From NCBI RefSeq assembly GCF_011045215.1, contig NZ_CP049202.1: DNA of 64,000 nt, one strand, 5' to 3'. Position numbers and translations under genes: made by a program. This DNA is from Escherichia coli. Lineage in GTDB: Bacteria; Pseudomonadota; Gammaproteobacteria; Enterobacterales; Enterobacteriaceae. The notes under the pieces were generated by a model. It did not search any database and was not told the DNA's origin. It was given only the letters and a program-made list of their open reading frames with translations. Shown here piece after piece: positions 2,914 through 14,316 of this stretch. How positions within the stretch are numbered: the stretch's first letter is position 1; each line of letters starts with the position of its first letter.

Positions 2914-3057
2914 CCCCGGCCCTTGTATGTAATAGGACTCGATGGCTAGCTACCATCATATGAAGCAGAGTGAGCTTGTCCCAGCCCTGAACAGTCAGAC
3001 TTTGATTAGCAGCAAAAGCCCTCTGCTGTAAGCGTCAACGGAGCACCGTATTGACGC

Positions 3058-4650
3058 TTATTTATTGGTGAGAACCACGTTCCATGGCAGGAGTTCGTCA
3101 ACACGGTTGGAGGGCCATTCCGGCAGTACGCTCAGAATATGGCGCAGATACGCTTCCGGATCGATACCGTTCAGACGGCAGGTGCCGATCAGCCCGTATA
3201 GCAGTGCACCACGCTCGCCGCCGTGATCGCTACCGAAGAACACGTAATTTTTCTTTCCAAGACAGACTGCACGAAGCGCTCTTTCCGCTGTGTTATTGTC
3301 CGTCTCCGCCAGTCCGTCATCACTGTAATAACAGAGGGCGTCCCACTGATTCAGTACATAGCTGAACGCTTCGCCCAGTCTGGATTTTTTCGACAGCGTG
3401 CCATTCTTCTCCACCATCCATTCATGCAGCGACGTCAGTAACGCTTTGCTTCGCTGCTGTCTGACTGCAAGACGCTCTGACTCTGGTAATCCCCGTATCT
3501 CATCCTCGATGGCGTACAGTTCACTGATTCGCTTCAGGGCTTCTTCTGCCGTCGCACTTTTGCTGCTGATGTATACATCGTGGATTTTTCTCCGGGCATG
3601 GGCCCAGCACGCAACTTCTGTCAGCGCACCACCTTCACGTTCTGCACTGAACAGCCTGTCATAACCTGTGAACGCATCCGCCTGCAGGATACCCCGGAAG
3701 GGGCGGAGGTGTTGCTCCGGGTGTTTCCCCTGCCGGTTCGGTGAGTACGCGAACCAGACCGCCGGAGGAGATGACGAACCCGCATTGCGATCATCCCGGA
3801 CATACGTCCAGATGCGCCCTGTTTTCGTCTTTTTCAGGCCCGGTGCCAGTACCTTTACCGGTGTGTCGTCAGTGTGAAGCTTGCGGGTATTCATCACATA
3901 ACGGTACAGGGCATCATTCAGCGGTGTCATTAACTGGCAGCACGCGTCAACCCAGTTGGAGAGTAATGCACGGCTCAGTTCGACACCCTGTCGGGCAAAG
4001 ATTTCACTCTGACGATACAGTGGCAGGTGTTCGCAGTATTTTCCCGTTAACACGCGGGCAAGTAATCCGGGGCCCGCGATACCACGCTCTATCGGGCGGG
4101 ACGGCGCCGGTGCTTCAACGATGCAGTCACATTTTATACAGGCTTTTTTTACCCGTTCTGTGCGGATCACTTTCAGGGCGCTGCTCACCAGTTCCAGTTG
4201 TTCTGCACTGACTTCCCCCAGATAATCCAGCTCACCGCCACACTCCGGGCAACAGCTTTCTTCAGACTCCAGACGCTGTATTTCACGGGGAAGGTGTGCC
4301 GGTAACGGACGACGATGGCGCGACTGTCGCAACTGGCGGGGAACCTGTGGATCGTCTTCCCGCCCACTGTAACGATCGCTGTCCTGTTCGCGTTGTTTCA
4401 GCAGGGCCTCAGCCTGTTCAACTTCACGACGCAGTTTTTCAGAACGGGTACCGAACAGCATCCGGCGCAGTTTTTCTATCTGAGCCCGCAGATGTTCTAT
4501 TTCCCGTTCATCTTCTTCGATCTTTTCTTCGGCACGTGCCAGTGCAGAGCGCAGGAAGGCCTCCGTCTCTTCAACCAGACTCAGTTGCTGGTCTTTCTGG
4601 CGGAGCTGGCTTTCCAGTTCTGCAATGCGAATGAGGTATTTCTGACTCAT
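3058..4650 (-). CDS. tnpC: IS66-family transposase TnpC
   Basis: 530 aa; leucine-zipper N-terminus, CxxC zinc motifs, KYxEHLPLYRQ motif, DDE region, C-terminal LPWN. Confidence 0.9.
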   Translation of the reverse strand: MSQKYLIRIAELESQLRQKDQQLSLVEETEAFLRSALARAEEKIEEDEREIEHLRAQIEKLRRMLFGTRSEKLRREVEQAEALLKQREQDSDRYSGREDDPQVPRQLRQSRHRRPLPAHLPREIQRLESEESCCPECGGELDYLGEVSAEQLELVSSALKVIRTERVKKACIKCDCIVEAPAPSRPIERGIAGPGLLARVLTGKYCEHLPLYRQSEIFARQGVELSRALLSNWVDACCQLMTPLNDALYRYVMNTRKLHTDDTPVKVLAPGLKKTKTGRIWTYVRDDRNAGSSSPPAVWFAYSPNRQGKHPEQHLRPFRGILQADAFTGYDRLFSAEREGGALTEVACWAHARRKIHDVYISSKSATAEEALKRISELYAIEDEIRGLPESERLAVRQQRSKALLTSLHEWMVEKNGTLSKKSRLGEAFSYVLNQWDALCYYSDDGLAETDNNTAERALRAVCLGKKNYVFFGSDHGGERGALLYGLIGTCRLNGIDPEAYLRHILSVLPEWPSNRVDELLPWNVVLTNK

Positions 4651-4680
4651 GGCCGTTTTTATAATGCGGTCAGGAGTTTT

Positions 4681-5031
4681 TTACAACATTGTCAGTGAGT
4701 TAAGGCGGGATGTTTTTGGCTGACGCCAGTCCAGCTTATCGAGGAGCATTGCCAGTTGCGAACGGGTAATGGATACCTTGCCGTCACGTACCGCAGGCCA
4801 GATAAACTGGCCTTCCTCCAGGCGTTTGGTGAACAGGCACAGACCATCAGCATCAGCCCAAAGAATTTTAACGGTGTCACCCCGTCGGCCACGGAAGATA
4901 AACAGGTGACCGGAGAAGGGATTAACATTTAACACATGCTGTACCTGTTCACCCAGCCCGTTGAAAGACTTACGCATATCGGTTATCCCGGCAACGAGCC
5001 AGATACGGGTACCGGATGGGAGTGAGATCAT
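4681..5031 (-). CDS. tnpB: IS66-family TnpB (Orf2)
   Basis: 116 aa, conserved IS66 Orf2 sequence (WLVAGITDMR...LFIFRGRRGD). Confidence 0.9.
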   Translation of the reverse strand: MISLPSGTRIWLVAGITDMRKSFNGLGEQVQHVLNVNPFSGHLFIFRGRRGDTVKILWADADGLCLFTKRLEEGQFIWPAVRDGKVSITRSQLAMLLDKLDWRQPKTSRLNSLTML

Positions 5032-5447
5032 CTTCCCCTCCCGGTCAGTTCACGAATCAATACAGTGAGCAGCTCTGGTGAAGGATTTTCCAGTGTCATG
5101 TTACCGTGACGGAACTCCACCTTGCAGGAGCTGGCACTGACAGTAGTCTGAGTGGATAAGGGCGGAGTAAGAGCAGCCATCGGTTCTTTCGGCTCATCAG
5201 GCGTTATCTCTACAGGTAATAATTCAAGGCCTGCGTCAGAAGTGGTTGTCACCGGAAGACGCCGTGATATACGCCCTTCGTTTTGCCAGAGTCTGAGCCA
5301 TTTGAAAATAACATTATCATTGACGCCATTTTCTCGTGCAATCTGAGCCACACAAGCACCGGGTTGTGATGCCAGTTCAACCATACGAAGTTTGAATTCA
5401 TTCGAATACTTTTTACGAGGTTCTTTTCGCCAGTCCTGTAATTCCAT
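5028..5447 (-). CDS. tnpA: IS66-family TnpA (Orf1), HTH protein
   Basis: 139 aa; 4-bp overlap with tnpB; motif GACVAQIARENGVNDN. Confidence 0.85.
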   Translation of the reverse strand: MELQDWRKEPRKKYSNEFKLRMVELASQPGACVAQIARENGVNDNVIFKWLRLWQNEGRISRRLPVTTTSDAGLELLPVEITPDEPKEPMAALTPPLSTQTTVSASSCKVEFRHGNMTLENPSPELLTVLIRELTGRGR

Positions 5448-5532
5448 ACTTAGATGTCCGTCTGTGTCAGATGGGCGTCTAAGTTACCAATTCTTGTCTA
5501 ATGGCTACATACGGCGGTCGGTTTACGCTTAC

Positions 5533-12672: not shown

Positions 12673-12778
12673 TTGTGGAGTCTCCAGTCTGAGGGAGCTT
12701 TATGCATCCCGTATTGGGCACTATGATGCCGGAAATCTGCGAGGCTCCACACTTTTCCTGCCAACCCCGGCTTCATAC

Positions 12779-12910
12779 TCAAATAGTTGGGATGCGTTCA
12801 TTACATTCTTCCAGGATGCGGATACGGTTCTGAAGTTCTGCAATATTCCGGTCTTTTTCCTGCACCACATTTGCAAGATTCTGACTCTCAGCCATGGCTT
12901 TTTGCACCAT
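12779..12910 (-). pseudogene. IS66-family TnpC N-terminal start fragment of the disrupted element (truncated by IS110 insertion)
   Basis: MVQKAMAESQNLANVVQEKDRNIAELQNRIRILEE then stop; leucine-zipper-like TnpC N-terminus directly downstream of tnpB. Confidence 0.5.
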
Positions 12911-13015
12911 GGCAATTGCCAGAGCGCGAAGCTATTCAGGGTCACGGGTGGTACTGAGAAGCGAGATATCCATGCGATGGATTATACGACATCACACATG
13001 GATATTCATTATATT

Positions 13016-13417
13016 TCATTGAGTTATTGCGTTGCTCTGAACATCTTCGGGTTCTTCCTGGTATACCCATTTTGCCAGGTCATGCCCTTTCACCTGTTGC
13101 CAGTCAACCCCACAGACCAGCCAGTGAAACTCATCCTGTGTGAGATGCCATGTGGCATCACCTTTCCGGGGCCAGCGGAAGCTTCCCCGGTGCAGTCGTC
13201 GGGTACACAGCCATACGCCATGTTTGTCCCACCGGAGAACTTTTATGCGGGAGCGGACTTTATTGGTGAAGACAAAAGCAGCACCGTCATGCCATGCAGC
13301 GTTAAGTTCGTTCTGGACGTACTGTGTCAGTGTGTCGATACCCCGGCGCATATCGACGGGTTTTACGACCAGGAATACGTTATCAGGCGTCAGCATGGCG
13401 AAGAGCCCGGAAAACAT
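13016..13417 (-). CDS. tnpB: IS66-family TnpB (Orf2) of the disrupted element
   Basis: 133 aa, conserved IS66 Orf2 core (VDMRRGIDTL...VFTNKVRSRIKVLRWD). Confidence 0.85.
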   Translation of the reverse strand: MFSGLFAMLTPDNVFLVVKPVDMRRGIDTLTQYVQNELNAAWHDGAAFVFTNKVRSRIKVLRWDKHGVWLCTRRLHRGSFRWPRKGDATWHLTQDEFHWLVCGVDWQQVKGHDLAKWVYQEEPEDVQSNAITQ

Positions 13418-13712
13418 CGGTTAACTGAGAAGGCTGGCAGCACATCCGGATACCTCCGGGAAGGAAAAGTGTGACAGGCTCATCCGACAATGGTCTGCCA
13501 TCAGCCATACCGGGAGCGCCAGACACTGAAACTGGAATAATTTCAGGTGCTCTGGCTCGTTTTTCGGCTTTTGCAACATCCTGCGGCCACTGGCGCAGGG
13601 ATTTAAACGGAATGTCGTAAAGTTCACAGTACTGTTCACGGGTAAGGCCGCTTGCGCGCCATGCGGCAACGTGATGTTTTTTCTGATCAAGCGTCCATCG
13701 CATCCTGGGCAT
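13383..13712 (-). CDS. tnpA: IS66-family TnpA (Orf1) of the disrupted element
   Basis: 109 aa HTH protein overlapping tnpB start. Confidence 0.8.
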   Translation of the reverse strand: MPRMRWTLDQKKHHVAAWRASGLTREQYCELYDIPFKSLRQWPQDVAKAEKRARAPEIIPVSVSGAPGMADGRPLSDEPVTLFLPGGIRMCCQPSQLTDVFRALRHADA

Positions 13713-14316
13713 TGTTTACTCTCCACAGAAAGAAGTTATACGAATACCGGAATGCTAATGGCGTGAAAATTTCTGTGAAGATGAGGTCCCCGGAACATTA
13801 CCTTCTTCCTGCCATGCAGTGCTATATTCAGCATCCTGCACTCCATTCGGAGTGCAGTTCTTTATGACATACTAGTTTCGCTGAGTACCTCAAATAGCCA
13901 TTGTAATAAGCGCCTCACAACATTAGCTTACAAGCTAATTACAGGTAAGTTAAATTAATTCAGATAATCGCAGGTACACAGGACACTTCATTTAGGGCCC
14001 TGTGGGAATTTCTGCGACAGTACACAGTAACAAAATCTGGTTCATGGGATTGTACGCCGAAATTTCAGAAAATACCGTCACAAAAGCTGGTAACCAGTAA
14101 ATTTGCATGACGTTGAATATATAACGGGTTATGTGACGAGTTTCGGTGTCGAAATCGTTACTTCAGTGACGGTCACTCAATCGGTCGTTTACAACTCCGT
14201 AAAAACTGGTCACGGAAAAATCCAGGTTTCCGGCCAGGAAACCCCAACATAATGGGATTCACATTATTGTTTATAATCCGAACCGCCCCAATAAGTTACG
14301 TCTGATTCATTTTCCC

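Follow-up and report, generated by a model that had tools for sequence, protein, structure and literature searches.

The window analyzed here is a 64,000-nucleotide (nt) stretch of an Escherichia coli contig (NZ_CP049202.1, assembly GCF_011045215.1), and between positions 3028 and 13801 it carries a pile-up of insertion sequences (ISs). The element at the base of the pile-up, referred to below as the host, is a 2,771-bp IS66-family element on an F-type plasmid; intact copies of it measure 2,771-2,773 bp. Listing of open reading frames (ORFs) and NCBIfam matches between 3,000 and 13,800 gave three IS66-type gene sets, complete or partial, and an IS110-family transposase, all on the minus strand, and istA and istB on the plus strand. 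The TnpB family NF033819 and the TnpA families matched the host and two further IS66-family elements, copy 1 and copy 2, alike, and inverted repeats were found in all three. We hold with high confidence that the locus is a nested pile-up in which a dead host IS66, interrupted by three elements of which one carries an IS21 element, served as a neutral landing pad.

The host element and its insertions

The surviving part of the host is nt 1-1999, present as three collinear pieces on the minus strand (13801-12807, 9243-8887, and 6179-5533). The first piece (12807-13801) corresponds to element nt 1-995, is 99.76% identical to NZ_CP010124.1, and starts at 13801 with the left inverted repeat (GTAATGTTCC / GTAATGTTCCGG), next to the left copy of an 8-bp target-site duplication, GGAAGAAG (13802-13809). 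It contains, likewise on the minus strand, tnpA (13383-13712) and tnpB (13016-13417), recognized by TnpA and TnpB family matches, and from 12973 the N-terminus of tnpC. The second piece (8887-9246) corresponds to nt 996-1352, with positions 9244-9246 being one of the two AGA copies at the junctions of the IS110-family insert. The third (5533-6179; nt 1353-1999, TnpC residues approximately 175-390; 99.2% identical to NZ_CP010124.1) stops at the start of copy 1. The final 772 bp of the element are missing, and with them 137 tnpC codons, the non-coding stretch on the 3' side, and the right inverted repeat; the right copy of the 8-bp duplication was lost along with this 3' end.

The left end of the host was placed at 13801 because three different genomic contexts diverge exactly there. 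A GTAAGC motif at 13931 was considered as the host end and ruled out, since the contexts split at 13801 and the duplication of an intact copy abuts that point. A sequence-only reading of this stretch had put the end at 13930 and had described tnpC as collinear minus-strand pieces with a missing 3' end. The pieces and the missing end were confirmed, but three boundaries were wrong, by 28, 86, and 129 bp; the segments 12779-12806 and 9247-9332 are termini of the IS110-family element into which ORFs run.

Intact copies of the host end in GTAATGTTCCGG and GTAATATTCCGG and make 8-bp duplications. The intact copy on E. coli W pRK1 is flanked by the duplication GTTTTCTG and encodes TnpC WP_000355318.1 (527 amino acids, aa). 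Plasmid B of E. coli C5 (NZ_CP010124.1) carries an intact copy at the same site as in the window, with GGAAGAAG on both sides, and is colinear with and 99.85% identical to window 12806-23126, which includes yiaY, rop, and a Pef/Afr-type fimbrial operon. Because the element is whole at this site in C5 plasmid B, that plasmid represents the locus as it was before the pile-up, and the comparison dates the pile-up after divergence from a C5 plasmid-B-like ancestor. Approximately 236 PLSDB plasmid records hold the host IS (queried with the rejoined pieces), most of them without interruption.

Removal of the inserts and duplicated bases gave 1,999 contiguous nt that are 99.15% identical to nt 1-1999 of the NZ_CP010124.1 element, and individually the pieces are 98.1-99.8% identical to one single intact copy. 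When the window was compared by BLAST to intact copies, the host sequence picked up at 9246 where 12807 had left off, with three bases (AGA) in common; keeping one AGA at this junction restored the frame as ...RILEEQMKLARQQ... The rejoined TnpC aligned without gaps and with 96% identity over residues 22-390 of WP_000355318.1 (527 aa) and matched NF033517 with E = 4e-81. The tnpC of the window copy also has a nonsense codon, Q14* (CAG to TAG, 12934-12932), that is not in the copy on C5 plasmid B. Exact junction repeats together with a restored reading frame cannot be accounted for by chance. On these alignments, all of the host fragments are derived from one element, and the excision and rejoining proposed earlier as a check of that single origin gave the expected result.

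Copy 2 is an intact ISCro1-like IS66 of 2,699 bp (6180-8878, minus strand) that lies between host nt 1352 and 1353. NCBIfam matches identified its tnpA (8148-8825), tnpB (7801-8148), and tnpC (6210-7781; 523 aa; NF033517, E = 1e-142), all on the minus strand, and the exact TnpC is named 'ISCro1 family' in NCBI. Self-comparison showed the 8 bp TCTCACAG directly and perfectly repeated on its two sides (6172-6179 and 8879-8886), in agreement with the clean duplication reported for this copy previously. The ends of copy 2 were confirmed by a full-length match in NZ_MN218686.1 (99.85% identity) that has its own 8-bp duplication. At 3739-7717 of that record, an ISEc45-type IS110-family element splits an ISEc23-like IS66 near the 3' end of tnpC, at a position that differs from the case in the window.

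Between host nt 995 and 996 lies an IS110-family element of the IS1111 group (9247-12806, minus strand; 1,425 bp without the IS21), split after transposase codon 12. Its 5' part (12640-12806) has the left end ATGTAATGAACGCATCC, a 5' non-coding region, and the transposase gene from 12672; its 3' part (9247-10504) has codons 13-339 (10504-9518) and a 3' non-coding region (9517-9247). Uninterrupted copies in CP057768.1 and CP057526.1 match the reconstructed element at 99.8% identity. The reconstructed 339-aa transposase is of the DEDD type (NF033542, E = 2.6e-99), and its cluster relatives (at least 90% identity) carry PF01548 and PF02371. Features of the IS1111 group are inverted repeats in subterminal position, extended non-coding DNA downstream of tnp, and a lack of target duplication (PMC11187229). 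In the window element, 11-bp subterminal inverted repeats are present in the 5' part (TGAACGCATCC) and the 3' part (GGATGCGTTCA), and there are 271 nt of non-coding DNA downstream of tnp versus 134 nt upstream. No target was duplicated, as the empty pRK1 site has AGA once and this triplet is common to both occupied junctions.

The IS21 within this element is intact (10505-12635, plus strand; 2,131 bp), has termini TGTCAG... and ...TTGACA, and encodes istA (10606-11778; 390 aa; the exact IstA is named IS21 family) and istB (11775-12575; IstB helper ATPase family), both on the plus strand (NF033546, E = 1e-82; NF038214, E = 2e-90). It is flanked by a 4-bp duplication, GTTT, at 10501-10504 and 12636-12639, and the uninterrupted sequence is seen in CP057768.1. 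The insertion sits directly after the first transposase codons, MKYTPVGVDIAK, the last of which overlaps the duplication. It cuts the GVDIAK motif, which we take to hold the first catalytic Asp of the DEDD family, off the rest of the transposase. A 346-aa ORF at 9518-10558 is a fusion whose start lies inside the IS21. With its gene disrupted, the window copy of the IS1111-type element is unable to make a transposase of its own, though its 3' non-coding RNA region is intact. The IS21, by its gene content and ends, appears intact and potentially active. The IS110-family element split by IS21 was thus correctly recognized before, as both the family matches and the sequence restored by excision show; the accompanying claim of four or more events in a single gene was not, because three insertions hit tnpC and the IS21 hit the IS110-type transposase gene.

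IS21-type terminal motifs (TGTCAGCACCAGTGATATAAGACG and two 27-nt subterminal repeats) without an IS21 body are also found at window 15974-16078. This remnant lies inside the stretch that is 99.85% common with C5 plasmid B and is therefore older than the pile-up.

Copy 1 is an intact ISEc23-like IS66 of 2,505 bp (3028-5532, minus strand) with tnpA (5028-5447) and tnpB (4681-5031), both assigned by NCBIfam, and tnpC (3058-4650; 530 aa; NF033517, E = 6e-134), all on the minus strand. The exact TnpC falls in a cluster with members named 'ISEc23 family'. Its inverted repeats are GTAAGCGTCAACGG and GTAAGCGTAAACCG, with terminal repeats that begin GTAAGCG. It abuts host nt 1999 and stands in place of the host 3' end, and its flanks, CCTCTGCT and GTATTTTT, show no target-site duplication.

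Immediately to the left of copy 1 is a toxin-antitoxin pair of the Gp49 (RelE-like)/HTH type (window 2105-2751). The segment 2801-2923 (approximately 120 bp) recurs close to the IncFII repA at 34460-34582; F-type plasmids commonly have it beside repA or toxin-antitoxin modules. Between 2923 and copy 1 lie 104 bp (2924-3027) that had no match among the top plasmid hits listed.

Window 1-739 (plus strand) is a 3' fragment of another host-family IS66, with a right inverted repeat that ends ...GCCGGAACGATAC at 739. We considered whether it could be the missing host 3' end in inverted orientation and ruled this out: the fragment is approximately 92% identical to the pRK1 copy, versus 96-99% for the host pieces. 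Both C5 plasmid A and a contig of 99.98% identity also carry 93 bp more of it on the upstream side, which makes it overlap the retained part of the host by 104 bp at 93% identity. The fragment begins 10 bp before the position that matches the host break point, which is coincidental.

Target choice of the IS1111-type element

The target sites of the IS1111-type element are TTGGAGAGCAGATGATTG in an IS2-like element and CCTGGAAGAGCAGATGAAG in IS66 tnpC. The empty pRK1 site reads CCTGGAAGA^GCAGATGAAG, where the caret marks the insertion point. In CP057526.1 the element is placed at CATTGGAGA^GCAGATGATTGATG, in sequence that opens with an IS2 terminus; comparison with the K-12 IS2 identified the motif there as the ribosome-binding site and start codon of orfA, canonically GGAGAACAGATG, with one base different. 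In CP057768.1 the element occupies the same position of a host-type IS66 that is located elsewhere, and the left junction differs by 1 nt, a pattern that suggests an independent insertion event. The motif GGA(A)GA^GCAGATGA is shared by all three placements of the 99.8%-identical element (window, CP057768.1, and CP057526.1). In PLSDB, the element or its 95-97% identical relatives had an IS2-type flank in at least 13 records and an IS66 flank in 6.

A sister element of 1,438 bp has 88-89% nucleotide identity to the window element, and its relatives are named 'ISEc66 family' by RefSeq. The sister was found at three unrelated loci, each reading GGAGAA^A..ATATG, which is a Shine-Dalgarno-like sequence with an ATG a few bases on; its sites include the region upstream of amn in Salmonella and the psiA-ardA interval on plasmids. 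The 3' non-coding regions of the two element types are otherwise well conserved, and their strongest differences make up two short blocks. The window element reads AAUCUGCUCU in block 1, where the sister has AAUAUU(A/G)UGUU, and GGGAGAAU in block 2, where the sister has GGAGAAAU. In each type, block 1 is complementary to the element's own right half-site (9/9 in the window element; 6-10 nt in the sister, with one G-U pair allowed), whereas block 2 reads in the sense of the left half-site. The candidate guide segments of the window copy are both on the minus strand: AUCUGCUCU at 9398-9406 (block 1), complementary to the right half-site AGAGCAGAT, and GGGAGAA at 9374-9380 (block 2), in the sense of the left half-site GGA(A)GA. 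In the predicted fold, both blocks lie within a loop closed by the stem GACUCGC/GCGAGUC.

RNA-guided insertion has been shown experimentally for this family, and ISEc11 is a characterized member (PMC11187229). With the shared motif and the paired blocks, it is likely that insertion of the IS1111-type element in the window was RNA-guided, at a look-alike of its IS2-type site. The site in IS66 tnpC appears to mimic the Shine-Dalgarno/start-codon site of the IS2-like orfA. A broader proposal is that the guide RNA of this element is programmed against other ISs, with the IS2-like orfA ribosome-binding site and start codon as the primary target, IS66 tnpC as a near-cognate off-target, and the ISEc66-like sister re-programmed to Shine-Dalgarno/start-codon contexts of ordinary genes. 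We put this forward tentatively, at slightly under an even chance. Two points weigh against RNA guidance itself. The guide/target matches are short, the 9-mer alone reaching only p of approximately 0.02-0.03 in shuffles, and the guide argument depends chiefly on covariation of position in just two classes of element, together with the mechanism shown experimentally for the family. If the broader proposal is true, this small clade would illustrate how a seekRNA can naturally be re-targeted to translation-initiation signals and how one IS can silence another. The apparent guide/target pairs provide an inexpensive case in which natural re-programming of a seekRNA, and the landing of an IS in other ISs, can be tested.

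A scan of window 1-17000 at Rfam gathering thresholds gave no match and no curated bridge RNA or seekRNA family. In the literature on ISEc66 or on an IS1111-group target in IS2, we found survey mentions of ISEc66 only and nothing on such a target. Approximately 7 nt right of the insertion point, the IS66 tnpC target (host site 9222-9246) contains AAGCTCGC, which equals a conserved segment of the candidate seekRNA stem (non-coding position 128); this is probably a coincidence.

History of the pile-up and alternative explanations

The best explanation begins with insertion of the host IS66 next to yiaY on an F-type plasmid, beside the Pef/Afr-type fimbrial operon, after which the host was hit repeatedly. 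The junctions show that the ISCro1-like copy 2 entered at host nt 1352/1353 by ordinary DDE transposition, leaving its 8-bp duplication, and the IS1111-group element at nt 995/996 without one. The IS21 followed into the IS1111-type transposase gene with a 4-bp duplication. The three tnpC hits may have come in any order. Insertions in a dead IS would cost nothing and so would persist, with the locus itself not being special.

Copy 1 requires a different kind of step, and we infer that it marks a rearrangement rather than a simple insertion. Window 1-3027 and the left junction of copy 1 are common to three independent draft assemblies (99.98-100% identity), the contigs of which break inside the IS. 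For window 1-914 the match is to C5 plasmid A (99.6% identity), whereas the far side of copy 1 is C5 plasmid B-like. Because its flanks match two different C5 plasmids, copy 1 lies at a join between DNA of two plasmids, which suggests that the ISEc23-like element is where two plasmid backbones were brought together. Homologous recombination between two ISEc23-like copies, one on each backbone, is the most likely cause of the junction; the reciprocal product would be a further copy of this IS with AAAAATAC and the host 3' end on one side and AGCAGAGG on the other.

A one-ended adjacent deletion would also give this result, and it is the explanation favored by the sequence-only reading on the basis of the missing duplication. 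According to this explanation, an ISEc23-like element beside the Gp49/HTH module underwent one-ended intramolecular transposition, in which its tnpA-proximal end attacked the host tnpC and the intervening DNA, including the host 3' end, was deleted. We regard it as a real possibility, at roughly one chance in three. It is consistent with the lack of a duplication, with the flank CCTCTGCT being kept beside the same IS in three other assemblies, with the host 3' end being missing from the window on the expected strand, and with no normal-insertion precursor having been found among 5,426 complete E. coli genomes. However, the two different C5 plasmids matched by the flanks fit inter-replicon recombination between IS copies at least equally well, adjacent deletion by IS66-family elements is not established in the literature consulted, and the contigs of the other assemblies end inside the IS, short of its far junction. 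The absence of a duplication was correctly noted, but it has two standard explanations, of which adjacent deletion is just one.

One result also counts against the history given above: the precursor junction (the right end of copy 1, AAAAATAC, and the host 3' end) was not found in any of the 5,426 complete E. coli genomes at a coverage of at least 80% of the query, and the path to the copy 1 junction is therefore one that we infer.

It had also been claimed that the locus is an insertion hotspot, and our results do not support this. A true hotspot would mean that several transposase families are actively drawn to IS66 tnpC or its neighborhood, whether by the structure of the DNA, by bound nucleoid proteins, by features of the replication fork close to the replicon, or because IS66-family elements prefer IS66 DNA. 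There are three hits within 2.77 kb, both IS66-family inserts are oriented as the host is, and IS110-family elements lie inside IS66-family elements on other plasmids too (NZ_MN218686.1, the ISEc45-type element in an ISEc23-like IS66). Yet the three inserts used three mechanisms at three positions, most of the approximately 236 plasmid records with the host IS are uninterrupted, and the IS110-type hit looks sequence-programmed, being accounted for by a motif that is also used in the IS2-like element. By our own rough binomial estimate, the probability of at least three hits in a given 2.77-kb target is approximately 0.08 before correction for having picked the target afterwards, assuming uniform insertion over approximately 24 kb of dispensable DNA with approximately nine other events. 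Recurrence was seen only for this sequence-programmed insertion; the ISCro1/host and copy 1/host arrangements were not found in PLSDB or the 5,426 complete E. coli genomes, and no other record covered at least 80% of the region with these junctions. The first approximately 33 kb of the window contain at least 11 IS elements or fragments, six of them in the pile-up. Others there are the IS66 fragment at 1-739, the IS21-like repeats at 15974-16078, a truncated IS2, an IS4321-like element, an ISL3/IS21 fragment, and an ISKra4-family transposase; among the tra-region ORFs examined, no transposase was found. A hotspot is not needed, since a dead IS in an IS-rich accessory region suffices as an explanation, and we consider a true hotspot improbable.

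An assembly artefact, in which IS66, IS21, and IS110 repeats were mis-joined and the nesting is not real in the cell, is the least probable alternative and very unlikely: although the region consists almost wholly of repeats that are multicopy in E. coli and the whole arrangement was not reproduced in any other record of PLSDB or the 5,426 genomes, mis-assembly would not yield exact 8-bp and 4-bp duplications or excisions that restore the host tnpC and IS110 transposase frames at the base level, and the host/IS110 arrangement occurs independently in CP057768.1 (one base different at the left junction) and the left junction of copy 1 in three other assemblies. The top plasmid matches to the whole region proved to be unrelated copies of the same ISs rather than common junctions, and were set aside.

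Surrounding region and relation to known systems

Elsewhere in the window, an IS2 at approximately 23127-24356, of which the first approximately 100 bp are gone and the left end is absent from the window, adjoins a second IS1111-group element (approximately 24356-25713, minus strand). The latter has a 354-aa DEDD transposase (24633-25697) and the subterminal repeats GGTCACTCCC and GGGAGTGACC, and it is approximately 91% identical at the nucleotide level to records annotated 'IS4321 family'. We considered whether this second IS110-family element had used the IS2-type target and ruled this out: the element is of the IS4321/IS5075 kind, there is no IS2 at its left flank, and the adjoining IS2 is simply truncated. 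Further along are an ORF that matches both ISL3-family and IS21-family transposase models (28765-29415), a serine recombinase (30625-31197), the ISKra4-family transposase (31232-32635), IncFII RepA (35259-36287), and, from approximately 40 kb, F-type tra genes, with traX at 40625-41371 and a 1,756-aa ORF at 41391-46661.

The type of structure described here and all of the families involved are already well known, and the pile-up itself is an ordinary finding; what is mildly new is confined to the apparent correspondence of guide and target in the IS1111-type element. The corrected boundaries provide a clean annotation of six mobile elements and show that the ORFs listed at the first stage run into IS termini. 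The host, copy 1, and copy 2 resemble known members of the IS66 family (ISCro1, ISEc23/ISEc8-type elements, and the unnamed pRK1 element) in their tnpA-tnpB-tnpC order, their NF033517 TnpC, and their termini starting with GTAA, and 8-bp duplications flank copy 2 and intact copies of the host. The host differs in having termini that read GTAATG rather than GTAAGCG and approximately 360 bp of non-coding DNA after tnpC, and the window copy is truncated and has a stop codon. Copy 1 departs from the usual IS66 family members in that the 8-bp duplication is absent. The IS21 of the window has the same length as IS21, the same istA/istB genes, TGTCAG... termini with repeated subterminal motifs, and a 4-bp duplication, with no notable difference.

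The IS1111-type element is like the members of the IS1111 group that use a seekRNA (bridge RNA), such as ISEc11 (PMC11187229), in its DEDD transposase, subterminal repeats, downstream non-coding region, lack of duplication, and specific target. The likeness appears to extend to two non-coding segments that match the two halves of the target, one per strand. Compared with the ISEc66-like copies, it has approximately 88-89% nucleotide identity, other guide blocks, and another target, inside ISs, and the window copy has been inactivated by an IS21. A further comparison is with IS4321 and IS5075. These IS1111-group elements insert into the terminal repeats of Tn21-family transposons. They are IS1111-type elements with a programmed target inside another mobile element, as the pile-up element appears to be; the target is the transposon terminal repeats in the one case and a translation-initiation-like motif in the other, and the two are approximately 69% identical at best.

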